This document shows positions 3,633-35,784 of a stretch of DNA of 44,232 bases, piece after piece. Origin of the DNA: an uncultured Piscirickettsiaceae bacterium (GTDB lineage Bacteria > Pseudomonadota > Gammaproteobacteria > GCF-002020875). How positions within the stretch are numbered: position 1 is the first letter of the stretch; each line of letters begins with the position of its first letter. The translations under genes and the position numbers were made by a program. Location: NCBI GenBank assembly GCA_964416755.1, contig CAYQFH010000001.1, positions 1 to 44,232 of the forward strand. The letters run 5' to 3'. Below the pieces are notes generated by a model, which was given only the letters and a program-made list of their open reading frames with translations, searched no databases and had not been told where the DNA came from.

Positions 3633-4610
3633 ATGGTAAGGCGGATAGTGCTGTATATGGTTCTGCTGTTTTCGGCAAATAGTTGGGCAACGGAGGGGAA
3701 ACGCTGTTTGATTGTCTACTCCTACCATGTGGGATACCCATGGAATGACACGATTGATCAGAGGGTGACAGAGGTACTGCAGGATGAGTGTGAAATCGTC
3801 CGCTTCTATATGGACTCCAAGCGCAACCCACAACCACAGTTTATCCGGGACAAGGCTCAACAGGCTCATTTACTGGTTCAACAATTGAAGCCAGATGTGG
3901 TGCTTGCATTTGATGACAATGCCTCGAAATATCTGGTTGTCCCCTATCTACGAGATGGGGATGTTCCAGTGGTCTTTGCGGGGGTTAATTGGGATGCCAA
4001 AGAGTATGGTTATCCCTATTCCAAGGCGACCGGGATGGTCGAAATTGCTCCGCTTGAACCACTCTTTTTGTATGCACAACAATTGCTGGGGAGAGGTGGA
4101 AAAAGGCCACTTCAGGTGCATGTGATTGATGCCAATCGCTATAGCGCAATAAAAGAGTTTAGCCATATCGAGAAACGATTCAGCAAGGGAGAGATGATTT
4201 TTTACCCCCACTTTGTGGAGAATTTTGAGCAGTGGAGGCAGGCATTTATTGCTGCTCAGAGCGGAGATATTGTGCTGCTGATGAACAATGCCGGGATTGT
4301 TGGATGGAGTAGTAGTGATGCAGAAGCCTTTGTCCGTCAGCATGGCAAAGCACTCTCTGTTGCCATCCATGGCTGGATGAAAAGATTGGTGTTATTGACG
4401 ATGGCAAAAGAGCCTGAAGAACAGGGGGAGTGGGCTGGAGAGGCTGCAGCTGCCATTTTGTCCGGAATCAACCCGAAGGACATTCCGATGGTAAGCAATC
4501 GGCGCTGGAGCAGTTATATCAATCAAAGCTTGCTGAATCAGATCAATGTACCACTTCCGGAACGATTGATTCAGCGTTCCCGGTGGCTAGAGGAGGAGAG
4601 AAATGAGTAA
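3633..4610 (+). CDS. Periplasmic binding protein, ABC_sub_bind-like (type I PBP fold)
   Basis: Signal peptide (…SANSWA). YSYHVGYPW, FYMDSKRN, PDVVLAFDDNA, PVVFAGVNW, ATGMVE and EQGEWAG motifs are typical of this family. Confidence 0.8.
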   Translation: MVRRIVLYMVLLFSANSWATEGKRCLIVYSYHVGYPWNDTIDQRVTEVLQDECEIVRFYMDSKRNPQPQFIRDKAQQAHLLVQQLKPDVVLAFDDNASKYLVVPYLRDGDVPVVFAGVNWDAKEYGYPYSKATGMVEIAPLEPLFLYAQQLLGRGGKRPLQVHVIDANRYSAIKEFSHIEKRFSKGEMIFYPHFVENFEQWRQAFIAAQSGDIVLLMNNAGIVGWSSSDAEAFVRQHGKALSVAIHGWMKRLVLLTMAKEPEEQGEWAGEAAAAILSGINPKDIPMVSNRRWSSYINQSLLNQINVPLPERLIQRSRWLEEERNE

Positions 4611-5601
4611 ATTTCAAAATGGAGTTGGTATGCTAAAGCGTTGGTTGTTGCTGTTCTGTTTGCCATTGAACAGTGTTGCCGGAGAGTTAGAGCCATTATC
4701 GATGCAGCTGCGATGGATCACTCAGGCGCAGTTTGCGGGCTATTACGTTGCGTTGGATAAGGGGTTTTATCAAAAGCGGGGGTTGGATGTGACTATTCTT
4801 CCCGGTGGGCCCAACCTCGATCCGTCACAAAATCTGCGTTCCGGATTTATCGATGTGGGGATTGAGTGGTTGCCGCATGCACTGTTGCAGCGGGAGCAGG
4901 GTAATCAGATCGTCAATATTGCACAGATCTTTGATCGTACCGGATATACCCTATCGTGTCGTAAAGACAGGGGGATCACATCTCTGAAAGACCTTCATGG
5001 CAAGCGGATAGGCTCCTGGTTTGTGGGCGATGAAGTGAAGATTGCTGCGCTACTGAGGAAAGAGCAGGTTGAGGCGGAGATCTATCCACAGAATTTCAAT
5101 CTGATCGATCTGATCGAAGGGAAGTCGGACTGCATCTCTACCATGCGTTACAACGAGTATTTGACGTTGTTGGAACAAGGGATGAGAGAGGATGAGATCG
5201 TAACTTTCGATTTTGACCAGTTGGGGGTGGCAACACTGGAGGACGGCCTCTATGTGCGTGAGGATCTTCTACAAGATCCATTGATGCGGAGTCGTTTGAC
5301 TCGGTACCTTGCTGCAACCATCGAAGGGTGGCGATATACACTGGATCACCCGGAAGAAGCGCTTGAAATTGTTTTGGATAATGATCCTACAGGGGCGCTG
5401 GATGAGGCACACCAACGCGCAATGCTAAACGTGGTATTGGGATTGCTTCATGTTGATCGGGATAAAATTGGTCAGCTTTCCGAAAGGCTTTACCTGCAGA
5501 ATGTAGAGCAGTTACTTGACGGAAAGGTGATCACCTACCATCCGGCAAGGGGAGCTTACAGCGATAAGATCTGGAAAGCGGTGCAGTCGTTGAGCAAATA
5601 A
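4603..5601 (+). CDS. NMT1/THI5 (SsuA-like) periplasmic binding protein; alternative start 4630
   Basis: LRWITQAQFAGYYVALDKGFY…GLDVTILPGGP, IAQIF, TMRYNEY and LEDGLYV motifs, plus a signal peptide. Confidence 0.88.
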   Translation: MSKFQNGVGMLKRWLLLFCLPLNSVAGELEPLSMQLRWITQAQFAGYYVALDKGFYQKRGLDVTILPGGPNLDPSQNLRSGFIDVGIEWLPHALLQREQGNQIVNIAQIFDRTGYTLSCRKDRGITSLKDLHGKRIGSWFVGDEVKIAALLRKEQVEAEIYPQNFNLIDLIEGKSDCISTMRYNEYLTLLEQGMREDEIVTFDFDQLGVATLEDGLYVREDLLQDPLMRSRLTRYLAATIEGWRYTLDHPEEALEIVLDNDPTGALDEAHQRAMLNVVLGLLHVDRDKIGQLSERLYLQNVEQLLDGKVITYHPARGAYSDKIWKAVQSLSK

Positions 5602-8379
5602 ATGCTGAGTATACGCCAACGACTCTCTCTCACTTTCGGTGTAATGGCGCTGATGTTGATGAGTGCAACGGCACTGGTTTGGATAGCCATTGACCGGTTG
5701 ACAACCTCTCACCAGCAGACACTGGTAAATACCATACCCATGACAATCAAGGCGGATCAATTCAGTGATTTGGTAGGACAGTTGGTGCATGAGGTGCTGG
5801 AGCTACAGTACGCAACTTCGGAGGGTGCTCGCTGGGAACAGCTGTTTGAGGTGAATCAGAAAGAGAAGTTGGTTAAGAATTCCTTTACTGCGCTGTTTGA
5901 TGATGCAGGAGAGGAGACCTATCCGTTGCAGCAAGCGTTGGATGAGGAGTTGAGGGAGTTACGTCAGGGGATCTATCAGGTGGACAACCATGTCCAGCAA
6001 TTGATCGAGTCAAGACAGTTGAAGAACATCTGGTCAGCGAAGATCGAAGAGAAACAGAAGCAGTTTCTGATGGCAATTACCCCGCTGGTCAATCTGGCCT
6101 GGAATGAAGTAAATGCAATTCAGCTGGATGATCAGTTTGGAACTGGCCATCCCAAGCAGGTGGACCGGTTGAGGCGTCTTTATTCAACCATCATGGCAAG
6201 TACCCAGCTCAGTCAGAAGCTGCAAGCTGCACTGCTGCAAACGGATTTGAAGCAGTTGAAGCGTCTGGAGAGAGAGGGGAAGCGGCTGTGGCGTAGAGTG
6301 GTTAAGAATGTAAATGTTAGTGTGGAGAACCAAGAGCCGATTAGTAAGGAGACGCAAGCATTAAGTGACCTTTTTCAACTGTTCCAGCTGCAACAACAGC
6401 ATATTGAGCACCTAAAACAGAGCAGAGTGATGGCAGAGCATCTGGAGAAGGTTGAGGAGGAGATCAGGACTGAGATGGTTCGTCTCAAGCAGGCCGTACA
6501 GCATCAGGTCAATGACAGCACGGAGGACACCAATCAGCTGTTACAACAGGGACGTGGCTGGATTGCACTGTTTACCCTCTTTTTTGTGCTGGTGGCCAGT
6601 TTCAGTGGTTGGTATGTCTATCGTCGTGTGGGGGGTGGGCTACGAGAGATGATCGATACCACACGTAAGCTCTCGAACGGCTTTCTCAGTATCAATATCC
6701 CGTTCCGGAATCGTCATGATGAGTTGGGGGATATGGCCAATGCGCTGGAGATCTTTCGTAAACAGGCGCAGGAGCGCAATCAACTGGCAGATGCGCTGAA
6801 GCGATCACAGCAGGATCTGGAACAGCGGGTTGAGCAGCGGACAGCTGATCTCAGTCACGAGATTGAGCGTCACAAGGTGACGGAGAAGAAGTTGGAGCAG
6901 AGTGCTCGCTACAAAACAGAATTCATAGCCAATATGAGCCATGAGATCCGTACACCGATGAATGCAATCCTTGGATTGAATAATCTGTTGTTGCAGTCGG
7001 AACTGAATGGTAAACAGCGCAACTTTCTCGAGAACCAGCAGAGTTCGGCTCAGACGCTGCTGCGCCTGTTGAATGATATCCTCGATATCTCCAGAATTGA
7101 GTCTGGAAAGATGGAGGTTGAGAATCGCCCATTCAGTCTGGATCAACTACTCAATACGCTGCATGCAACGGTCTATAGTGGCCTGGCGATGGAGAAGGGG
7201 TTGCAGGTCACGATTGAGCGTGAGGAACATATTCCAGACCATCTGCTGGGTGATGAACATCGATTGCTGCAGGTGCTCATCAATCTCTGCAGTAATGGCA
7301 TCAAATTTACCGAGAAAGGGGGAGTGAAAATAGTTGTCTCACCAGTGGAAGCGACAACAGAGCAGTACCTCTTGCGCTTTGCTGTAGAGGATAGCGGTAT
7401 TGGTATGAGCAACGAGGTGCAGAACAGGGTATTTGAAGCCTTTGTGCAGGCTGATAGCTCTACCACTCGCAGATTTGGCGGTACTGGATTGGGACTGGCG
7501 ATTAGCCAACGTCTTGTGCAGTTGATGGGAGGTTCTGGAATTGAGGTCGAAAGCGTCGAGGGGGAGGGGAGTACCTTCTCGTTTGAGCTCTCATTTGATA
7601 TTACTGCTTCGACAGGAGTGGCATCACCAAAAGTGTCGCCAGAAGTGGTATCTATTGACCAGCTTCAGCGGTTGATGAAGGATAAAACGGTATTGTTGGT
7701 GGATGACCATGCAGCAAACCGCCTGGTGGTGGGGATCATGCTGGAGGATATGGGGGTAAAGGTATCCGAGTCGGAAGGGGGGAGAGAGGCATTGCAGTGG
7801 CTGCAGCGTAATGGTATCCCGGATCTGATTCTGATGGATATGAGAATGCCGGGTATGGATGGTATTGAGACCACACGGGAGATCAGTAGACGCTATCCCG
7901 ATTTGGCGTCTCCGATTGTTGCATTGACAGCGGAGTCGATTGAAGAGCGGCGCAGTGAGGCGATGGCCGTGGGTATGGCTGGATTTCTCAGTAAACCGGT
8001 CGATCCGGATCTGTTTGAGGCGTTAATGATCCAGCTCTTCTCGGAAGGCCAGAGCGAGGTTGAATATGGTGCCTCTCAAGTGAAGTTGCCTGATGTGGAA
8101 CTTCAGAGACACCCCGACCCAATTGAGTTCACAGAGGATCCTGTGTTGAGAACTTATTTCAAACAGGAGGTTGGTGAGTGCTTCGATGAAGTGCAATCGA
8201 CGCATGATATTGATACCATAGAGCGCTTCGCTATTGATCTGCTGATTGCTGCACAGCAGAAAGACGCTTCGCAATGTGTGGAATGGGCAAATAATTTGAG
8301 AACTCAAGTTGAGAATATGGATGTGGTTGGTATGAATCAGTCACTGGAGCAGTTTGCCCGGTTTGTGGAGGAGCAGTAG
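5602..8379 (+). CDS. Hybrid sensor histidine kinase: TorS-like periplasmic domain, HAMP, HisKA, HATPase, REC
   Basis: Two TM helices flank a ~290-aa helical domain. HAMP (DELGDMANAL), H-box FIANMSHEIRTPMN, NGIKFT, DSGIG, FVQAD, GGTGLGL, and a REC domain (VLLVDD, LMDMRMP, SKP). Confidence 0.93.
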   Translation: MLSIRQRLSLTFGVMALMLMSATALVWIAIDRLTTSHQQTLVNTIPMTIKADQFSDLVGQLVHEVLELQYATSEGARWEQLFEVNQKEKLVKNSFTALFDDAGEETYPLQQALDEELRELRQGIYQVDNHVQQLIESRQLKNIWSAKIEEKQKQFLMAITPLVNLAWNEVNAIQLDDQFGTGHPKQVDRLRRLYSTIMASTQLSQKLQAALLQTDLKQLKRLEREGKRLWRRVVKNVNVSVENQEPISKETQALSDLFQLFQLQQQHIEHLKQSRVMAEHLEKVEEEIRTEMVRLKQAVQHQVNDSTEDTNQLLQQGRGWIALFTLFFVLVASFSGWYVYRRVGGGLREMIDTTRKLSNGFLSINIPFRNRHDELGDMANALEIFRKQAQERNQLADALKRSQQDLEQRVEQRTADLSHEIERHKVTEKKLEQSARYKTEFIANMSHEIRTPMNAILGLNNLLLQSELNGKQRNFLENQQSSAQTLLRLLNDILDISRIESGKMEVENRPFSLDQLLNTLHATVYSGLAMEKGLQVTIEREEHIPDHLLGDEHRLLQVLINLCSNGIKFTEKGGVKIVVSPVEATTEQYLLRFAVEDSGIGMSNEVQNRVFEAFVQADSSTTRRFGGTGLGLAISQRLVQLMGGSGIEVESVEGEGSTFSFELSFDITASTGVASPKVSPEVVSIDQLQRLMKDKTVLLVDDHAANRLVVGIMLEDMGVKVSESEGGREALQWLQRNGIPDLILMDMRMPGMDGIETTREISRRYPDLASPIVALTAESIEERRSEAMAVGMAGFLSKPVDPDLFEALMIQLFSEGQSEVEYGASQVKLPDVELQRHPDPIEFTEDPVLRTYFKQEVGECFDEVQSTHDIDTIERFAIDLLIAAQQKDASQCVEWANNLRTQVENMDVVGMNQSLEQFARFVEEQ

Positions 8380-9657
8380 ATGAGCGAATTGCCTCGAGTA
8401 TTGGTTGTTGATGACCAGCCGACCAATTTGCAGGTGGTAGGTGGTGTGTTGCGAGATACCGGGCAGTATCGGGTCAGTTTTGCCCAGAGTGGTGAGGAGG
8501 CGTTGATGTTGGTGGATAATCTGGCGCCAGACCTGATTTTGCTCGATGTAATGATGCCGGGTGTGGGCGGCTTCGAGGTTTGCCGGAAACTGAAAGGCAG
8601 TCCTGTTCTGAACGCAATCCCGATCATATTCCTTACCGCAAAAAGTCAGGCCAAAGACATGGTGGAGGGCTTTGAAGTTGGAGGAGCCGATTACATCACC
8701 AAGCCATTTGAACCTGCAGTACTGCTCTCCCGGGTCAATGCCCACCTCCAGCTCTACCTCTATAATCAGCGTGAAGAGGAGATGAGAAGCAAGGAGCGGA
8801 TCACCTCTTATCAGAACGGTTTGACGGAGATGGGAGCCTCCGTGCTGCACAATATTGGCAATGCGATGGTCGGTGTCAATAGTCGGCTCTCTCCCATTCA
8901 CGAAATGGTGAAAAAGATGGGTGATCTGGGGGGCGCACTGGAGAAGGCACACACCATGCTGAAGGATGAAGGGGATGTGGATCGCGTACTACAGATTCTC
9001 ACGCTGAGTAGTAAACTGCTGAAGGAAGAGTATGCGGCAATGTTGGCAGAGGATAGCGATAATCTGAGAGAGTCTGTCCACCATGTGAATGAGATTATTG
9101 ATGCGCAGCGAAACTTGACAGCGAAAGGGTTGATGTCTTCTCACTTTCATGTTGAGTCACTGATTTCTGATGTGACGACATTGTTGGGGGATGAGCTGAA
9201 GAAACGCAAGATCAGGTTGGTGATCAAGGAAGAGGCCAGAATACCTGAGGTGTTCTTGCCACGCAGTCCGATGGGGCAGATGGTGGTGAATTTGATCAAG
9301 AACAGCTACGAATCTCTCTCCACGCATGTTCAGCGTAGCGGGATCAGAGAAAATGAGGCCGAGATTGAGGTCAGACTCCGTCTGGATGATGTGAAAGAGG
9401 GGGGACAGTTCTGGCGTCTGGAGGTGGCTGACAATGGTGTGGGGATTGCGCAGGAGCATTTGAGTCAGGTGCTGCTCTCCGGCTATACCTCAAAGTCTTC
9501 AGGAAGTGGGTTGGGGCTGCACAGCGCTGCCAATTTTGCCGTTGCAGTGGGAGGGAAGCTTTCGGTAGAGAGCGATGGGATCGGCAAGGGGGCAACCGTT
9601 TCCGTGTTGCTCCCCCAGGAGTGTCAGCAGAACTGCTACCAGATGAACTTCGGCTAG
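8380..9657 (+). CDS. Cytoplasmic REC-HisKA-HATPase hybrid kinase
   Basis: N-terminal REC (VLVVDD, LLDVMMP, FLTA, ITKP), H-box ASVLHNIGN, NLIKNS, DNGVG and GSGLGL. Confidence 0.92.
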   Translation: MSELPRVLVVDDQPTNLQVVGGVLRDTGQYRVSFAQSGEEALMLVDNLAPDLILLDVMMPGVGGFEVCRKLKGSPVLNAIPIIFLTAKSQAKDMVEGFEVGGADYITKPFEPAVLLSRVNAHLQLYLYNQREEEMRSKERITSYQNGLTEMGASVLHNIGNAMVGVNSRLSPIHEMVKKMGDLGGALEKAHTMLKDEGDVDRVLQILTLSSKLLKEEYAAMLAEDSDNLRESVHHVNEIIDAQRNLTAKGLMSSHFHVESLISDVTTLLGDELKKRKIRLVIKEEARIPEVFLPRSPMGQMVVNLIKNSYESLSTHVQRSGIRENEAEIEVRLRLDDVKEGGQFWRLEVADNGVGIAQEHLSQVLLSGYTSKSSGSGLGLHSAANFAVAVGGKLSVESDGIGKGATVSVLLPQECQQNCYQMNFG

Positions 9658-18378: not shown

Positions 18379-18481
18379 TAGAAAATCATCGTGATCTGAT
18401 AGGGTTGTGATGGTTTCATGCTCTGATATTCTACCTCTTTTGAAGGTCCAATCCAGAAAACAGGCAGAGGAGCAAAGGATT

Positions 18482-19123
18482 ATGCGTTGGTGGAGAGTCT
18501 TGGGGGGGGGGATGGGGGTGATGCTCTCTGCTTCAGTTGTTGCACTGGAAGTGGGAGTGACGGAGGACCTCTCCTCAATCGAGGTGCTGCATGGTGACGC
18601 ACGGTTTACAATAGAGCGTAATCAGGATGTGGAGCATCGTATTGCAGATGAGTATGCACGAACCTCACGACCCTGCCCGCCTTTCTGCATTCAACCGATG
18701 GAAGTTGCGTCTGGTGTCAAGACGATCGGTGAACTGGAATTGCTCGATTTTATGCAACGTCAGGTGGCCAGTGGTTCCGGGATGGTGATTGATGCACGCT
18801 CCAGTGACTGGTATGCAAAAGGGACGATACCAACCTCGATTAATATTCCCTATACTGATCTGGATCGAAAATTGGGAGCCGATGACTTTGTGATTGAGTT
18901 CTTTCTGGAACAGCTTGGTGTAAAGCGGCAGAATGGAGTTTGGGACTTCTTTGTTGCCAAGGATGTTGTGCTCTGGTGTAACGGACCCTGGTGTCAACAA
19001 TCACCAACAGCGATTCGAGCGCTATTGGAGTTGGGATATCCTGCAGAGAAGATTCTCTATTACCGGGGAGGCATGCAGATGTGGCAGTTGATGGGTTTTC
19101 CAGTGGTAGATCCGGCTGAGTAA
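18482..19123 (+). CDS. Exported rhodanese-domain (sulfurtransferase-like) protein
   Basis: AAAGGA SD before ATG 18482, a signal peptide, and TSRPCPPFCIQP, IDAR, GTIP…NIP, WCNGPWC and YYRGGMQ.W. Confidence 0.9.
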   Translation: MRWWRVLGGGMGVMLSASVVALEVGVTEDLSSIEVLHGDARFTIERNQDVEHRIADEYARTSRPCPPFCIQPMEVASGVKTIGELELLDFMQRQVASGSGMVIDARSSDWYAKGTIPTSINIPYTDLDRKLGADDFVIEFFLEQLGVKRQNGVWDFFVAKDVVLWCNGPWCQQSPTAIRALLELGYPAEKILYYRGGMQMWQLMGFPVVDPAE

Positions 19124-19128
19124 CAGCA

Positions 19129-21498
19129 GTGACCTATCGAGGCAAGCTCAAAGCGGGTTTCTCGGTGATGCTCCTGTTGCTATTGGTACAGGGGATCTTC
19201 TCTGGTTGGCTCTTCCGGGAGAGTCGTGATCTGGGAGAGTCAGTCAAGTATCGAGAACTTCCTCTGGTGCTGGAGGCGATGGAACTGCGTGAAGGACTGC
19301 ATCAGGTACAGGGAGCACTACAGGGGTGGATTCTGACGCAGGATAGTGCATTTCAGGTGCAGTATCAGCAGCTCTGGCAGGCGCTGCACAGTAAACAGAT
19401 TCTTGCAGACAACGCGCAGTTGGGATTGAAAGTTGCGGCACTTCAGGAGATGCAAGATCAGGTGATGGTGTTGGCACATACCTTGGAGAGCCAACCTGCT
19501 GCCCGTTTGATGAAACAGGTGTTACAACCTCTGGCGGAGGGGATCGGTGAAGCGGCTCGACGCCTGATTTTTCTGGAACGGAGGCGAGTTCCGGGTAATA
19601 AAAATGTGGTGAAGTTGCGACAGAGCAAATCTCTGATCTATACGCTCTCTACCTTCCAGCGCTCATTTTCAGAGGCTAACAATACCCTCAATAGTGTTTT
19701 GCTTAGTGGTGATGCAGATGGGCAGGCGCGTTTTACGCAACATTGGCGTGAAAATGAGGGGGCGTGGATGACTATTCACCGCTCTGATCTGACAGCAAAA
19801 CAGATGAGAGAAGTGGAGCAGATACAGCAGCGGCGAGAGCGGTTTCTGCTGGATGCGACTCGTATGATTCAGCTGCGGCGGGGGGAGAAGTGGAACTTGG
19901 CCGCCTGGAAGATGCGTCATGAGGTGGAGCCACAGTTGCAGGAGGTGTTGCTTGCGGTGACTGGTATGGTCAGACAGAACACCGAGAAGATGAATCGTGG
20001 CTTTACCCATCAGACTGAGGTGATGAATGATGGTAGCCGCATGGTCTGGATCTTTCTTGCGGTTGCGATGGTGGTGATGTCTATTGCGGCGCGTGCAGTG
20101 GCACAGGGAGTGCGTAGACCGATCCGTAAGGTGCAGCAGGTATTTCAGGATATCCATGACAAGAACTACCACACCCCGATTGAGATCGAGACCGATGACG
20201 AGATGGGGATGTTGTTGACATCATTGAAAGGGATGCGTCAGCAGTTGCTGGATGCAGCGTTGGAGGAGCAGGCAAGCAAGACGGCGCTGCAGAACCAGAA
20301 GTTTGCGCTGGACCAGGCTGCCATCGTCAGTGCTACTGACCTGGATGGAAAAATCAACTATGTCAACCACAAAATGCTCGACCTGACTGGTTATGAAGAG
20401 CATGAGTTGATGGGGCAGACTCACCAGCTGATGAAGTCGGGTGTGCATGATGATGACTTTTATGCGGATATGTGGAAGACCATCAAGGCGGGGTTGGTGT
20501 GGCGAGGTGAGGTTTGCAACCAGGTACGTGATGGCCGCAAGGTGTGGATGGATACCACCATTGTCCCTTTTTTGGGGGAGGATCTGTTGCCAGTGCAGTA
20601 TATGGCGATTCGCAGTGATATTACGGTGATCAAGGAGACGGAGCAGCGTATTCGTGAGGAGCAGAAGCGTACGGTATCTGCCAATGAGGAGCTGCAGCGT
20701 TCCATGGATGAACTTCGGGCCACACAGCAGCAGTTGGTGGAGTCCGAGAAGATGGCATCCCTGGGAGGACTGGTTGCCGGTGTGGCGCATGAGGTCAATA
20801 CCCCGTTGGGGATTAGTGTGACTGCTGCCTCTTTCCTCAAGGATCAGACCGATCAATTTCATGACAGTTACCGGTCACAGAAGATGAAGCGCTCCGATCT
20901 GGAGCGCTATGTGGAGCAGGCCAAAGAGTCTTCGGGGATTGTGCTGGAGAACCTGATGCGTGCCAGCGCACTGGTGAAGAGCTTCAAACAGGTGGCTGTG
21001 GATCAGTCCGATGAGGCGTTGCGCTCGTTTCAGGTGGTGGAGTATCTGCATGATATTTTGCGTAGCCTGCAACCGAAGCTCAAGCGTCTTCCACACGCCA
21101 TTGAGATAGAGGGGAATGAAGAGATCACCATGGTGGGGGTGCCGGGCTCTTTTGCTCAGGTGATCACCAATCTGATCATGAATGCGGTCATCCATGGATT
21201 GGAGGATACGGTTGCAGGCAGAATCGGAATTGCTGTCCAACAGCAGGGTGAGGAGGTGGTGATCCACTTTGAGGATAACGGTAAGGGGGCTTCCCGGGCG
21301 GTGGTAGAGAATATCTTTGAGCCATTTTTTACTACCAAGCGTGGAGATGGAGGAAGTGGTCTCGGAATGCATCTGGTCTACAACCTGGTTGTGCAGCAGA
21401 TGGGGGGTGAGATCAGCTGTAGCAGCATTGAGGGTGAGGGGATGGCCTTTACTCTGCGTTTTCCATGTCAATTGCAGGAGGAGCAGGTCAGGGCTTAG
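19129..21498 (+). CDS. Membrane sensor histidine kinase (helical periplasmic domain, HAMP, PAS, NtrB-like HisKA-HATPase)
   Basis: Two TM helices, HAMP (DDEMGML), PAS (TDLDGKINYVN…WRGEVCN), EKMASLGGLVAGVAHEVNTP, NLIMNA, DNGKG, FEPFFTT and GSGLG. Confidence 0.94.
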   Translation: MTYRGKLKAGFSVMLLLLLVQGIFSGWLFRESRDLGESVKYRELPLVLEAMELREGLHQVQGALQGWILTQDSAFQVQYQQLWQALHSKQILADNAQLGLKVAALQEMQDQVMVLAHTLESQPAARLMKQVLQPLAEGIGEAARRLIFLERRRVPGNKNVVKLRQSKSLIYTLSTFQRSFSEANNTLNSVLLSGDADGQARFTQHWRENEGAWMTIHRSDLTAKQMREVEQIQQRRERFLLDATRMIQLRRGEKWNLAAWKMRHEVEPQLQEVLLAVTGMVRQNTEKMNRGFTHQTEVMNDGSRMVWIFLAVAMVVMSIAARAVAQGVRRPIRKVQQVFQDIHDKNYHTPIEIETDDEMGMLLTSLKGMRQQLLDAALEEQASKTALQNQKFALDQAAIVSATDLDGKINYVNHKMLDLTGYEEHELMGQTHQLMKSGVHDDDFYADMWKTIKAGLVWRGEVCNQVRDGRKVWMDTTIVPFLGEDLLPVQYMAIRSDITVIKETEQRIREEQKRTVSANEELQRSMDELRATQQQLVESEKMASLGGLVAGVAHEVNTPLGISVTAASFLKDQTDQFHDSYRSQKMKRSDLERYVEQAKESSGIVLENLMRASALVKSFKQVAVDQSDEALRSFQVVEYLHDILRSLQPKLKRLPHAIEIEGNEEITMVGVPGSFAQVITNLIMNAVIHGLEDTVAGRIGIAVQQQGEEVVIHFEDNGKGASRAVVENIFEPFFTTKRGDGGSGLGMHLVYNLVVQQMGGEISCSSIEGEGMAFTLRFPCQLQEEQVRA

Positions 21499-23997: not shown

Positions 23998-24615
23998 CTA
24001 GTTGCTGGCAGCCGCCTCTGCAGCCCGGCGCTCGGCACGCTTCTGTTCCCGTAGCTGTTTGGTCTGCTCCTGAAGTACCTTGCGTACCACACGATCCTTG
24101 TCCTCTTCGTGCATATGGGCGAACTCGATAGCGATTTTCCAGGGGCCATTGGGGTCATCTTCTGCGGGGAACGACTTGATTACACGAGATACGGTGCGAA
24201 TTGCAACATGCTCCGGGATAAAGGTAATCTTCAGATCAAGGAGTGAATCTTTTTCCAGCTCCTGCTGGTGGTAGATCAGTGCACCGCCGCCACTGAGGTT
24301 GACCGGCATCAGTACATTGGTCGGTGTACCGTTCTGCGGGTTGAGTGACTTCTGGTGCTCCAGCTCTCTCAGGATGATGTTGATCTTCTGGTTCATCAGA
24401 TCCAGCAGGAGTCCCATCTTCAGGTCTGAGCCAGTCACTGCAGCAATGGCATCCTGGATCTGCTTGTTCATCTTGACTGTTTCGGAGTCAATGGAGTTGT
24501 TCGGTGTCTGTGAGAGGATTGCGGTTGCCAGTTCACTGGCCTGCTCTTCATTGATGGTGCTGCATTGAATCAGTGCTTCAAGATCAATGCGGAAATGTCT
24601 GCGCTTCTGGTCCAT
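23998..24615 (-). CDS. PilZ-domain c-di-GMP-binding protein (alternative GTG start 24633)
   Basis: RRHFR (RxxxR), the L.L.NQKIN helix and NLSGGG (D/NxSxxG). Confidence 0.88.
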   Translation of the reverse strand: MDQKRRHFRIDLEALIQCSTINEEQASELATAILSQTPNNSIDSETVKMNKQIQDAIAAVTGSDLKMGLLLDLMNQKINIILRELEHQKSLNPQNGTPTNVLMPVNLSGGGALIYHQQELEKDSLLDLKITFIPEHVAIRTVSRVIKSFPAEDDPNGPWKIAIEFAHMHEEDKDRVVRKVLQEQTKQLREQKRAERRAAEAAASN

Positions 24616-24641
24616 GCTCTGCTCTTTCCTCACTTACACTT

Positions 24642-25448
24642 TTACTTCTTCAGAATAATCTCAACCCGTCGATTGGCGGATCGTCCCATTGAATTTTCAT
24701 TGTCATCGATGGGGTCAATGTCGGCATGCCCCTCTGCCTGGATACGTCCCGCCAGCTCGGGTTCGAACTCCATCATCTTGTGGACCACTGCGGTTGCACG
24801 CATACTGGAGAGTTCCCAGTTGGAAGAGAACTCTTCATTGGAGATCGGGATGTTGTCGGTGTGTCCAATCACCTGAATGCGCCCCTCCATATCAGTCAGA
24901 TTTGCAGCAATCTTTTTCAGGGTGCCAAAGATAGCACGATTGAGGCGCGCTTTACCGGTCTGAAAGGCAGCCTTGTCCTTGAGGCGGATCAGGACGGTGT
25001 TCTCTACCCCTTGCACCTCGGCCTGACGCAGAAAACTCTCCAGTTTGAGGGCCTTCTTGATGGTTTTTGTATCTTCCTGAGTCTGTTGCCGCTTCTCGTC
25101 GTTGTCACTTTCTCCATCGGAACCGGACTGCTGAGCAAGAATCTTCTTGGAGATGATACTGGTGGTCTCCTGCCGAACCACATCCTTGGTGGTCTTCTTG
25201 GTGACATTGGGAGACCACTTGAGGGCGATGATGGAGGTACCCATCGGGGTGTTGGTTGCAATGACTTCATTCTGTACACCAAAAGCCTTGTCCATACCGG
25301 CAACTACTTTCTTCATCTTTCGGGCATCAATGGTTGCAAATGAGAGCAGTAGTACAAAGAAGCAGAGTAGCAGTGACATCAGATCACCAAAGGTGGCCAG
25401 CCATGCAGGCAGCCCGGGGGGGCACTTCTTCTCGGGAGCATCTGCCAT
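24642..25448 (-). CDS. pomB: Flagellar stator B subunit, PomB/MotB type
   Basis: CPPGLPAWLATFGDLMSLLLCFFVLLLSFA and an OmpA-like domain (GHTDN, SNWELSSMRA, NRRVEI). Confidence 0.92.
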   Translation of the reverse strand: MADAPEKKCPPGLPAWLATFGDLMSLLLCFFVLLLSFATIDARKMKKVVAGMDKAFGVQNEVIATNTPMGTSIIALKWSPNVTKKTTKDVVRQETTSIISKKILAQQSGSDGESDNDEKRQQTQEDTKTIKKALKLESFLRQAEVQGVENTVLIRLKDKAAFQTGKARLNRAIFGTLKKIAANLTDMEGRIQVIGHTDNIPISNEEFSSNWELSSMRATAVVHKMMEFEPELAGRIQAEGHADIDPIDDNENSMGRSANRRVEIILKK

Positions 25449-25454
25449 CCCCGT

Positions 25455-26219
25455 TTACTCCTCGTGCTCGGCGCGCTGCTTGGAGGGGATGTAGTTGAGC
25501 AGAGAGGATTGCAGCACACGAGGGTTGAGCCCTTCCTGAATACCGGCAACCCCTTCGATGATCAGCGCCTTCTGGATACGCTCCTGTTCAGTACGCAGCT
25601 CCAACTTTTTGGCGATGGGGATGGCAATCAGGTTGGCGAGCAGCGCGCCATAGAGGGTGGTGAGCAGAGCCACCGCCATCGCCGGTCCGATTGCTGCAGG
25701 GTCACTCATGTTGGCCAGCATCTGTACCAAGCCGATCAGGGTGCCGACCATGCCCATTGCCGGAGCCAGATCACCCCACGACATAAAGAGTTTATGTGCC
25801 ACTTCATGACGCCCCAGGGTAAGGATCATGTCGGAACTGAGTTTGGAGGTGACAGTGTGAGCATCCTGCCCATCAACGCCCATCTGCAGACCAGAGCGGA
25901 GGAAGTCGCTCTCGAAGCTCTCCATCATCCCCTCCAGTGCCAGCAATCCCTCTTTTCGTACGACTTGTGCGCATTCAACGATCTGGTTGATGAGTTCGAT
26001 ATTCTCGGTCTCTTTGTAGAGGAATGCCTTGGCAGCAGTGCCCCATGCGGCCAGGAATTGGGCCAAGGTAAACTGCATCATCACCGCAGCAAGTGACCCT
26101 CCCACAACGATCACCAGCGAGGGTGCGTTGACAAACATCCCCATCTCGCCACCCAGCAAAATAGTGATGGCAACCAGTACCCAAGCGAGAATAATCCCGA
26201 CTAGACTTGCAATATCCAT
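25455..26219 (-). CDS. pomA: Flagellar stator A subunit, PomA type
   Basis: 254 aa with MDIASLVG, RKEGLLALE, APAMGMVGTLIGLVQML and IGPAMAVALLTTLYG. Confidence 0.93.
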   Translation of the reverse strand: MDIASLVGIILAWVLVAITILLGGEMGMFVNAPSLVIVVGGSLAAVMMQFTLAQFLAAWGTAAKAFLYKETENIELINQIVECAQVVRKEGLLALEGMMESFESDFLRSGLQMGVDGQDAHTVTSKLSSDMILTLGRHEVAHKLFMSWGDLAPAMGMVGTLIGLVQMLANMSDPAAIGPAMAVALLTTLYGALLANLIAIPIAKKLELRTEQERIQKALIIEGVAGIQEGLNPRVLQSSLLNYIPSKQRAEHEE

Positions 26220-34003: not shown

Positions 34004-34891
34004 ATGAATATCATTGTCGGATTTCTTGTTGTGACTGGAAGTGTGATTGGCGGATATCTGCTATCACATGGTTATCTGTTGGCGTTGTGGCAGCCTTATG
34101 AGTTGCTGATCATATTAGGGGCTGCTACCGGCGGTTTGATCATTGCCAATCCGCCCCATATTCTATCGCAAGTGCGCAAGGGGCTGCCTCAGCTGTTGAG
34201 GAAGAGTCGCTATGACAAGGCACTCTATCTGGAACTGCTGGGGGTCATCTATGAACTGTTCATGCGCTCCAGAAAAAATGGCATGCTCAGTTTGGAGAGT
34301 CATGTTGAAAATCCGAAAGAGAGCTTCATTTTTCTGCAGTACCCCCGTTTGACCAAACATCACCCGGAAGCGATTGAATTTTTGATCGATTACCTGCGCT
34401 TGATTGTTGGTGGCAATATGAACAGTTACGAGCTGGATAATTTGATGGATATTGAGCTTGCTACTCATGAACATGAGTCGGCACAGCCTGCCGGAGCACT
34501 CAACTCCATGGCGGATGGTTTACCAGGGTTCGGAATTGTGGCAGCAGTGATGGGAATTGTGATTACGATGGGGTCGCTGGGTGGCCCGGTTGAAGAGACC
34601 GGACAACATCTTGCTGCGGCATTGGTGGGAACCTTTCTGGGGATTTTGCTCTCCTATGGGTTTGTGGGGCCTCTGGCGCGTGCGCTGCAGTACGTTGCGG
34701 AGGATCAGGCCATGATGCTCAGCTGCATCAAGACAGCATTGGTAGCCAGCCTCAATGGTTATGCACCAGTGGTGGCAATCGAGTTTGGGCGCAAGGCGAT
34801 TCCTTCCCACCTGCGTCCCGGTTTTTATGAGCTGGAAGACCATATCCATCAGTTGGGTCTGCATGAGGGTGCAAAGGCGGTTGATGCATGA
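34004..34891 (+). CDS. motA: Flagellar stator MotA (E. coli-like long form)
   Basis: ALWQPYELLII.GAA, R..G.L.LE, DYLRL, LPGFGIVAAVMG, ALVGTFLGIL and EFGRK. Confidence 0.95.
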   Translation: MNIIVGFLVVTGSVIGGYLLSHGYLLALWQPYELLIILGAATGGLIIANPPHILSQVRKGLPQLLRKSRYDKALYLELLGVIYELFMRSRKNGMLSLESHVENPKESFIFLQYPRLTKHHPEAIEFLIDYLRLIVGGNMNSYELDNLMDIELATHEHESAQPAGALNSMADGLPGFGIVAAVMGIVITMGSLGGPVEETGQHLAAALVGTFLGILLSYGFVGPLARALQYVAEDQAMMLSCIKTALVASLNGYAPVVAIEFGRKAIPSHLRPGFYELEDHIHQLGLHEGAKAVDA

Positions 34892-35784
34892 GTGACATGA
34901 TCCAGCCGATTGTTGTGAAGAAATGCAGAAAATCTCTGCACCATTCACACAGCAGTTCCTGGAAGGTGGCACTTGCAGATTTCATGACTGCGCTGATGAC
35001 ACTGTTTCTGCTGTTGTGGCTGTTGGCGTCGACAACCCCGGAACAGCGTGCTGCGATTGCTACACAATTTCAGGGTGAAGGGCTGATGCCGGGTGACAAG
35101 CGTATGACTCTGGAAGAGGAGAATGGTGGAACCTCCAGTCAGTTGATTGATATGGGGGGGAGTCGAACAGAACGGGAGAAAGAGGAGGAGCGAGAGCAGA
35201 TTGAAGCAGAGAGTCGCAAGGAGATTAGCAAGATTTACCGTCAGGTGAAATCTGAGCAAGCGAGGATGAGAAAGCTTAAACGTGTGCTGGAGCAGACCAT
35301 TGAGCGTAGTAGTGTGATGAATAAATTCAAGGATCAGATTCTGTTGAAGCAGACTCCCGAAGGGTTACGTATTCAGATTGTGGATAAAAAGAACCGTTCC
35401 ATGTTTGATCGGGGTGGAGCAACACCAAAGAAGTATACTCAGAAGATTCTTATGCAGTTGGGCGCAACGATCAATATGGCACCCAACAAGATCTCGATTT
35501 CCGGTCATACGGATGCTTCCCGTTATAGCAGAATCAACTACAGCAACTGGGAGCTGTCGAGTGATCGGGCCAATGCAGCCCGCCGTTTTTTGGTAAAGGG
35601 AGGGATGCGTGAGCGGAAAATTGACCGTGTGGTCGGGTTGGCAGCCACAGACCCATTGGACGAGCGTAATCTGAAGAGCGCAGTCAATCGGAGAATCAGT
35701 ATTCTGGTGATGAACCGTTCCAATGAGACCTCACGTTATATGGAGGCTGTGACCAAACCTGGAAAGTCGCGTTCAGATCAATAG
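34888..35784 (+). CDS. motB: Flagellar stator MotB (E. coli-like)
   Basis: HHSH…WKVALADFMTA, EGLRIQIVD…R.MF, GHTDA, NWELSSDRANAARR and NRRISI; ATGA overlap with motA. Confidence 0.95.
   Translation: MSDMIQPIVVKKCRKSLHHSHSSSWKVALADFMTALMTLFLLLWLLASTTPEQRAAIATQFQGEGLMPGDKRMTLEEENGGTSSQLIDMGGSRTEREKEEEREQIEAESRKEISKIYRQVKSEQARMRKLKRVLEQTIERSSVMNKFKDQILLKQTPEGLRIQIVDKKNRSMFDRGGATPKKYTQKILMQLGATINMAPNKISISGHTDASRYSRINYSNWELSSDRANAARRFLVKGGMRERKIDRVVGLAATDPLDERNLKSAVNRRISILVMNRSNETSRYMEAVTKPGKSRSDQ

Follow-up and report, generated by a model that had tools for sequence, protein, structure and literature searches.

Why would two periplasmic binding proteins be encoded without a transporter and immediately ahead of two kinase genes? 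This question is raised by a four-gene cassette on contig CAYQFH010000001.1 of an uncultured Piscirickettsiaceae bacterium (assembly GCA_964416755.1), in a stretch of 44,232 nucleotides that was analysed at its full length and is called the window below. The cassette encodes a PF04392-type periplasmic binding protein (PBP1), an NMT1/THI5-type binding protein (PBP2), a hybrid sensor histidine kinase and a second kinase preceded by a receiver domain (REC-kinase). An earlier note on this DNA had proposed a periplasmic sensing system in which both binding proteins feed one TorS-like kinase that relays its signal through the second kinase. Gene layout, domain families, predicted fold, family neighbourhoods and the co-occurrence of the kinase tail with its partner receiver were computed directly here, and they lead us to favour, with fair but not strong confidence, a two-component sensor whose TorS-type receptor depends on binding-protein input. 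The earlier interpretation as a whole is partly supported.

The four genes are coupled exactly as had been described. PBP1 and PBP2 share an 8-bp overlap (...GGAGGAGGAGAGAAATGAGTAA) preceded by a strong Shine-Dalgarno, ribosome-binding stretch, GGAGGAGGAGAG, and the two following junctions, TAAATG between PBP2 and the kinase and TAGATG between the kinase and the REC-kinase, leave a 0-bp gap each. Both binding proteins begin with signal-peptide-like N-termini, as read from the sequence, and the Pfam families agree with the identities given to the four products, PBP1 being a divergent member of PF04392. Pfam annotation of the window genes also bore out that the cassette has no ATP-binding cassette (ABC) permease, transport ATPase or DNA-binding regulator next to it. 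A scan for promoters and terminators returned no more sites than were found in shuffled sequences.

In the kinase, two hydrophobic segments bracket about 290 residues that are modelled as helices, and this sensor domain (residues 31-318) matched no Pfam family, while a sequence search of the PDB gave only HAMP entries. Its relatives are few: nine matches at E≤1e-3 among 1.84 billion representative proteins, seven of them reaching 1e-10, none in 400 other genomes of the class (one genome returned no score), and none confirmed among 369 pattern matches in metagenome contigs. The AlphaFold2 model, built on a seven-row alignment, is all-helical with a mean predicted local distance difference test (pLDDT) of 84, in keeping with the large helical periplasmic domain expected from the sequence. 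The TorS likeness claimed for it was also recovered, since the top six Foldseek matches in the PDB are all TorS sensor domains (3O1J, 3O1I with two chains, 3I9Y, 3O1H and 3I9W; E 4e-6 to 1e-4, TM-score 0.56-0.80 on target length). The TorS equivalog TIGR02956 aligned with kinase residues 3-894 at 427.6 bits, under its cut-off of 676.5, and PRK11466 scored 244.6, under a cut-off of 982. Thus, given an end-to-end alignment and a TorS-like predicted fold with a score below the cut-off, the protein is considered TorS-like in architecture and fold, and not a TorS orthologue. Its cytoplasmic part is that of a hybrid kinase, with Pfam HisKA, HATPase_c and REC domains and with the H-box SHEIRTPMN and the receiver motif LILMDMRMPG read from the sequence. 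Within the sensor, the best-conserved stretches are residues 74-88 (RWExLFxxN) and 124-128 (IYxVD).

Both stretches reappear in a model of the sensor with its putative partners. One three-chain job combined sensor residues 32-318, as the scored partner, with PBP2 residues 28-332 and PBP1 residues 20-325. The interaction prediction score from aligned errors (ipSAE) was 0.79, 0.81 and 0.82 in three runs (median 0.81), against 0.00 in each of two controls in which the sensor had been exchanged and 0.18 when PBP1 was exchanged; the mark used for this score is reached by 116 of 157 solved complexes and by 2 of 215 mismatched pairs. The runs share at least 84% of their contacts, with a partner pLDDT of at least 80. 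All 25 residue pairs with the lowest expected error join PBP1 (140-143, 267, 287-294) to the kinase (74-88, 124-129), so that the kinase side of this interface consists of the RWExLFxxN and IYxVD motifs, and the lowest-error contact regions of PBP1 span residues 140-146, 267-270, 285-294 and 315. Interface residues P140, W267, P285, R290, W292 and K/R315 are conserved over 78 family members, and the transporter-type protein 3LKV differs at this patch (Trp267->Gln, Asn289->Ala, Arg291->Gly, Trp292->Ser). The model therefore supports docking of PBP1 on the kinase sensor. With regard to the proposal that two binding proteins feed one kinase, docking on the sensor gained support from the model, whereas the confident contacts are those of PBP1 and a joint input is conjectural.

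The family of PBP1 mostly lies beside receptors. Pfam ABC_sub_bind (PF04392) covers only the C-terminal part of PBP1, at 28.6 bits versus a gathering cut-off of 25.9; the sequence alone retrieved nothing useful from the PDB, and the ESM Atlas returned just generic PF04392 clusters. A word-indexed search yielded 370 relatives, mostly at 35-54% identity and labelled just as ABC substrate-binding or hypothetical proteins. A 30-row alignment of the family contains many invariant residues, and the family profile matches the solved PF04392 structures 3LKV (3e-10), 3LFT (3e-6) and 6HNI. For PF04392 proteins, structures with bound L-Trp, L-Tyr and L-Phe are among those reported in the literature (PMC10443332).

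Gene neighbourhoods of the family were surveyed in species-representative genomes, where 501 relatives could be confirmed; the 80 best of the loci were examined with a simple gene caller that accepted as downstream gene a frame of at least 250 amino acids (aa) starting within -80 to +300 nt. Such a gene was called in 57 of the 80 loci, and in 49 of these 57 it encodes a Pfam CHASE domain. The outputs of these 49 receptors comprise GGDEF domains (32, of which 30 with EAL), histidine kinases (14) and SpoIIE (1), with two proteins consisting of CHASE only. A local CHASE profile built from the 49 added 16 loci with frames beginning at the end of PBP1, which brings the total to 65 of 80. The remaining 15 loci include three at a contig edge, three orthologous cassettes (L029, L031, L033), two with another kinase type (L004, L005), two with an ArsP permease, one with a dCache chemoreceptor, one with a gene lacking assignment and three without a called gene. 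An ABC permease was the next gene in none of the 80. PBP1 itself belongs by sequence to this CHASE-receptor-associated PF04392 subfamily (35-54% identity, shared invariant motifs), which adjoins signalling receptors and not permeases. Our literature search, with supplementary files outside its scope, found no paper linking PF04392/COG2984, or any binding protein, to CHASE receptors.

The cassette departs from this usual pairing: neither Pfam nor the local profile matched CHASE in the window or in the locus of the same-genome PBP1 paralogue (45% identity) on contig C46 (L003:864-11430, minus strand). In the latter, a Peripla_BP_6 protein comes after the PBP1 paralogue, then a PAS kinase of 727 aa whose periplasmic domain has no family assignment, a chemoreceptor, a receiver and finally a multi-receiver hybrid kinase of 1100 aa that has a histidine phosphotransfer (HPt) domain. 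A quick maximum-likelihood tree of 82 rows grouped four cassette PBP1s with the L004 and L005 proteins (six rows; support of 89 in the Shimodaira-Hasegawa-like approximate likelihood ratio test, SH-aLRT), while 72 rows, mostly CHASE-linked, formed a separate group (support 84). Given these neighbourhoods and this tree, PBP1 is a member of a receptor-dedicated family, and the small subclade to which it belongs has switched partner type.

Pairs of PBP1 relatives and CHASE receptors span Gamma-, Zeta- and Betaproteobacteria and Desulfobacterota, as in the Sedimenticola selenatireducens locus L061 (8908-12632). One PBP1 and CHASE-GGDEF pair comes from a contig labelled Halobacteria archaeon (L071); its sequences are nested among gammaproteobacterial ones, and the contig is probably mis-binned. 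At L240:5054-8700, a PF04392 binding protein lies directly 5' of an sCache_4-HAMP hybrid kinase with a true HPt, so that yet another type of sensor is combined with this family.

The origin of PBP2 seems to be different. Pfam NMT1 (PF09084) matched it at 3.3e-39 (135.4 bits versus a cut-off of 20.5), and among solved structures it is closest to 4NMY (1e-16) and to ThiY, which binds a pyrimidine precursor (3IX1, 4e-12). About ten orthologues at 57-75% identity were found, and thousands more proteins at 44-48% are named NitT/TauT substrate-binding. Every cassette locus retains PBP2, and all PBP2 orthologues with context lie in the cassette. The earlier note had regarded orthologous binding proteins normally encoded with permeases, and not with this kinase, as evidence that would speak against it; orthologues of both proteins were found in the cassette. 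Outside it, relatives in the 400 genomes of the class include one orphan gene (44%), one gene (43%) in an ABC operon that also encodes two permeases and an ATPase, and two genes directly 5' of dCache-HAMP-SpoIIE proteins (34-36%), and many relatives at 30-33% form the N-terminal NMT1 part of kinases or diguanylate cyclases, two of them in this genome. Metagenome contigs held 74 non-cassette relatives (38-44%), with a NitT/TauT-type permease homologue in 60 of the 74 loci and PBP1 in none; in the 12 loci with at least 2.5 kb on both sides, a permease was present in 10 and an ATPase in all 12. Six further metagenome loci, representing three distinct sequences, are true cassettes. In the window, Pfam detected no NitT/TauT permease or ATPase adjacent to PBP2. 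Judged from these sequences, the sister clade of PBP2 is a transporter family. A vitamin precursor or a nucleobase as ligand, as put forward in the earlier note, is a suggestion drawn solely from the NMT1 family name.

These data bear on whether the roles of the two proteins could be reversed, with PBP2 as the real ligand-delivering partner of the sensor and PBP1 as an accessory or scaffold inherited from CHASE ancestry, or with both as equal inputs. PBP2 accompanies this sensor in every cassette, the sensor was not found without it, and NMT1 domains occur fused to kinases of the same tail family (see below); in addition, the related PBP1 genes at L004 and L005 directly precede a different kinase type and have no second binding protein. 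In the best run of the complex model, PBP2 (residues 39-40, 66-72, 168-192 and 261-266) touched the distal helices of the sensor (kinase residues ~152-232) at an expected error below 8 A. We nevertheless regard such a reversal as unlikely, given that the 25 best contacts are all made by PBP1, that consistent receptor association lies with the PBP1 family (65 of 80 loci) and that the nearest outside relatives of PBP2 reside in ABC operons.

Still less probable, in our opinion, is that the sensor binds its signal directly and that the binding proteins serve uptake through a transporter encoded elsewhere. The next structural matches below TorS were indeed the ligand-binding domains of PilJ and McpS, helical bimodular domains of the kind that this explanation invokes, and the genome does encode a NitT/TauT-type transporter, on contig C122, together with other ABC systems. 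However, this transporter, the only NitT/TauT-like one of the genome, has an NMT1_2 binding protein of its own next to it. Nor was a PF04392-type transporter seen in the genome, whose sole BPD_transp_2 pair resembles Urt/Liv and comes with a Peripla_BP_6 protein of its own. The lack of an ABC permease as next gene in the 80 PBP1 loci and the complex model, which favours docking, point in the same direction.

How the signal would leave the kinase is suggested by its C-terminal end. About 120 residues past the receiver had no match in Pfam, including none to Hpt (PF01627). When 12 such tails were compared with six HPt domains by hhalign, the probability was 65.5% (E 5.9e-5), with Ile878 in the histidine column, at which one of the 12 tails retains histidine; a three-row tail profile against five HPt domains gave a probability of 0.14%, which is not significant. 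The tail profile also retrieves the true Pfam Hpt of L240, and the tail of the kinase from genome G117 is itself a true Pfam Hpt (2e-11), which ties the tail family to HPt. The window tail as a pseudo-HPt that has lost its histidine is moderately supported, and not more than that because the smaller alignments disagreed on the histidine column. Among the cassettes, the L031 orthologue has the canonical HPt motif PIHTIKG and no REC-kinase after the kinase; the divergent tail and the REC-kinase occur together in the window, L029 and L141; and the L033 kinase is tail-less, yet a REC-kinase follows.

The same association was observed beyond the cassette. The tail occurs a second time in this genome, on contig C5 (L223:4859-8835), at the end of a 7TMR-DISM hybrid kinase of 904 aa; the gene upstream, which overlaps the start of this kinase, encodes a 422-aa paralogue of the REC-kinase. 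The tail is present in eight other genomes among the 400 of the class, and five of eight degenerate-tail kinases (G340, G376, G325, G311-C23 and G144) have an adjacent gene whose receiver shares 48-55% identity with the receiver of the REC-kinase, the G311-C23 and G144 sequences being 91% identical to each other. The tail-bearing kinases' own receivers are only 26-37% identical to it. The output domains of these partners are HD-GYP (2), nucleotide cyclase (1) and PAS-kinase (2). The G340 and G329 kinases carry fused NMT1 domains, G340 also SBP_bac_3, and in the G311 and G144 clusters two SBP_bac_3-like binding proteins precede the kinase; hence, a layout of binding proteins, tail-bearing kinase and receiver partner recurs with different input families. 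The REC-kinase is accordingly proposed, from these sequence comparisons, as the cognate partner of the hybrid kinase, and the relay through a second kinase that had been suggested is in line with the recurrent association between tail domain and receiver family.

Two loci with a window-like layout, L235:2287-8047 and L237:4264-10034, each contain two SBP_bac_3-like proteins, a 755-aa tail-bearing hybrid kinase and a REC-PAS-kinase.

The four-gene order was found again in other assemblies (L029, L033, L141-L145 and L217), and its recurrence shows that it is not due to chance. The nearest relatives are metagenome-assembled genomes labelled uncultured Piscirickettsiaceae or Gammaproteobacteria. 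The cassette lies 3' of bolA in L029, L033, L141, L143 and L145, and it is followed by rnb in the first four, the L145 contig ending within the kinase; in L031 it sits elsewhere. REC-kinase orthologues come after the kinase in L029, L033 and L141. In two genomes of the same genus, bolA directly abuts rnb and the cassette is absent. The cassette is, therefore, an accessory unit of about 6 kb. In L141 (3755-7004), a second hybrid kinase of 813 aa, which ends in the same tail as the window kinase, lies between bolA and PBP1 and is itself preceded by a Phosphonate-bd-like binding protein; in this version, two kinases may feed one REC-kinase.

An accessory unit might also be a decaying or silent island, in which the lost HPt histidine and the missing adjacent regulator reflect loss of function. 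The absence of the cassette from the bolA/rnb junction of both same-genus genomes would fit such a history, as would L033 (10942-13418), whose orthologous kinase is split into two frames (126 aa and 692 aa) and stops just past the receiver, although this split may stem from a frameshift, from misassembly or from decay. In the window, however, all four frames are intact, and the H-boxes, the N and G boxes and the receiver Asp, Thr and Lys are all there, as read from the sequence. Moreover, the histidine-less tail is conserved with its matching partner across distant genomes, which argues for selection. Decay is thus the explanation to which we give the least credit, and we think it very improbable.

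Under the favoured reading of the cassette as a sensor built on a TorS-type receptor, PBP1 would be exported to the periplasm and would dock on the membrane-proximal to middle part of the helical sensor through the family-wide conserved patch Pro140, Trp267, Pro285, Asn289-Arg-Arg-Trp292 and Arg315. By analogy with the action of TorT on TorS, closure of PBP1 on a ligand would alter the sensor dimer and then, via HAMP, kinase activity. PBP2 may act as a lineage-specific second input recruited from the NitT/TauT-type transporter binding-protein clade, and its contact would probably be with the membrane-distal bundle of the sensor. The kinase would autophosphorylate at the HisKA histidine; it has its own receiver and the HPt-like tail without histidine, which might provide the docking site that the REC-kinase receiver uses. 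The latter would be the true response regulator and could pass the signal, by its own kinase activity, to a regulator elsewhere in the genome. In this scheme, we infer that switching depends on a ligand, and likewise the part played by PBP2, the phosphotransfer route and the output.

Several observations weigh against this reading. The sensor alignment holds only seven rows, and a job with three chains and custom alignments differs from the set on which the complex score was calibrated. Since the TorT-TorS complex has been solved, the docking result may also partly reflect likeness of fold. CHASE, which has an alpha/beta fold, is the usual partner of the PBP1 family and differs in fold from the helical sensor, so that one conserved patch would have to serve both. 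The homology between tail and HPt is moderate: four alignments, MAFFT alignments among them, place the histidine column differently, and His868, nearby, is kept in two of five close tails. Three of the eight degenerate-tail kinases (G311-C22, G329 and G022), as well as the true-HPt kinase of G117, lack a neighbour of the REC-kinase receiver type. No output regulator was found for the cassette, and the cassette is dispensable, as its absence from two same-genus genomes indicates.

The usual CHASE partner of PBP1, the kinase without a working HPt histidine and the status of the cassette as an accessory insertion go beyond what the earlier note had described. A broader reading, in two parts, is offered tentatively. 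In its first part, the large PF04392 subfamily, whose pocket is near-invariant and whose docking patch is conserved, would be a dedicated periplasmic co-receptor mostly for bacterial CHASE receptors that was re-used here on a TorS-like sensor. In its second part, the HPt of a hybrid-kinase family would have become a histidine-less docking module that recruits one receiver family, with kinase, HD-GYP or nucleotide cyclase output, in a relay bypassing the usual His-Asp-His-Asp route. That both parts hold together is possible, and less probable than the sensor reading itself.

The positions of the cassette genes and of the kinase domains are listed in Table 1. Housekeeping genes flank the cassette. 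Upstream, Pfam identified HtpG, a DacB-type S13 peptidase and BolA, and downstream an RNase II-like gene on the opposite strand, SCO1 and an ABC-F type ATPase; the last consists of two ABC_tran domains and ABC_tran_Xtn and is not a transport ATPase. The remainder of the window contains chemotaxis and flagellar genes, according to Pfam. Within this chemotaxis and flagellar region, a PilZ-domain protein adjoins a MotA/MotB-like pair (23998-26219), and a second MotA/MotB pair is found at 34004-35784. At 18407-21498, a HAMP-PAS kinase of 789 aa, with about 320 N-terminal residues lacking assignment, follows at a distance of 6 bp a 238-aa protein that contains a rhodanese-like domain; the two may represent another pair of accessory protein and kinase.

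Table 1. Genes of the cassette and domains of its hybrid kinase, with positions in the window.
Feature	Position	Strand	Description
PBP1 gene	3633-4610	+	325 aa; secreted PF04392-type binding protein, receptor-associated subfamily
PBP2 gene	4603-5601	+	332 aa; secreted NMT1/THI5-type binding protein
Hybrid sensor histidine kinase gene	5602-8379	+	925 aa; HAMP, HisKA, HATPase_c, REC (Pfam)
Kinase periplasmic sensor domain	5692..6555	+	aa 31-318; all-helical, TorS-like predicted fold
Kinase HAMP (aa 339-390), HisKA (438-502), HATPase_c (550-665), REC (697-804)	6616..8013	+	Pfam
Kinase C-terminal tail	8131..8376	+	aa 844-925; diverged HPt-like, Ile878 in histidine column
REC-kinase gene	8380-9657	+	425 aa; receiver aa 7-119, dimerisation region with H-box LHNIGN, HATPase_c 298-413

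To our knowledge, just a handful of sensor kinases read their signal via a separate binding protein. Among known systems, TorT/TorS, described from E. coli and Vibrio parahaemolyticus (3O1H, 3O1I, 3I9Y, 3I9W), comes closest to the cassette. TorS and the window kinase have in common a two-storey helical periplasmic sensor and the same order of cytoplasmic domains (TIGR02956, 3-894), and both systems include a separate class I binding protein without a transporter, docked in the cassette in a model only. Nevertheless, the two sensors share about 15% identity and the window kinase scores under the TorS equivalog cut-off. Unlike TorT/TorS, the window adds an NMT1-type second binding protein and would have lost the HPt histidine, and a REC-kinase stands in place of the OmpR-type regulator TorR. 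Among the called genes of the window, Pfam identified no TorT-type protein, TorR or torCAD.

Kinases of the BvgS/EvgS type have periplasmic binding-protein domains fused to them, and BvgS has a working HPt. In the window, by contrast, each binding protein has a gene of its own and the kinase has a helical, TorS-like sensor; the cassette looks like an unfused form of the G340 and G329 receptors, in which NMT1 is fused to a tail-bearing hybrid kinase. A histidine-less HPt also has a precedent in plants, where AHP6, a free pseudo-HPt protein without the phospho-accepting histidine, inhibits the phosphorelay. Both AHP6 and the window tail are HPt-like and lack the histidine, whereas the latter is fused to a bacterial hybrid kinase and comes with a putative dedicated receiver partner. 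A literature search combining 'pseudo-HPt' with 'hybrid histidine kinase', with supplementary files outside its scope, returned only plant papers.

LuxP/LuxQ likewise resembles the cassette in that a class I binding protein is permanently tied to a hybrid kinase, but LuxP is of the Peripla_BP_4 type, another family than PBP1, and the LuxQ sensor also differs from that of the window. LuxQ relays its signal via the free HPt protein LuxU. The periplasmic domain of LuxQ is described as dCache-like (PMC8050422). It is alpha/beta, as are the usual CHASE partners of the PBP1 family. TorT, in the same source, is of the Peripla_BP_1 type (PMC8050422), versus PF04392 for PBP1. The PahS/PahP/PahK/PahR system offers another parallel, as a periplasmic binding protein is described there as relaying a chemical signal to a kinase: PahP of Cycloclasticus sp. 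P1, a transporter-less periplasmic substrate-binding protein of ~318 aa, binds the kinase PahK with a reported KD of 9.8 nM (iScience 2023, PMC10570129). By the account given in that paper, the Pah system starts with an outer-membrane receptor, of which the cassette has none, and its kinase and regulator are of other types (PMC10570129). PahP/PahK is probably a precedent for the docking of a transporter-less binding protein on a kinase.

Sensor kinases stimulated by binding proteins are, according to a 2021 review, an established kind (PMC8050422); the terms CHASE, ABC_sub_bind and NMT1 are absent from its full text. On the reading favoured here, the cassette is a rare new form of binding-protein-dependent sensing, in which a TorS-type receptor is combined with a binding protein from another family than TorT and with a further one unrelated to the first. 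The PF04392-CHASE pairing and the pairing of tail and receiver are two wider leads that may turn out to be new in kind. We know of no bacterial CHASE-domain receptor with an assigned ligand, and the PF04392 subfamily beside CHASE receptors would open a route to the signals of these receptors. Ligand screens are practical, as the binding proteins are small and soluble. The HPt-like tail without histidine, together with its putative dedicated receiver partner, bears on how hybrid kinases choose their targets.

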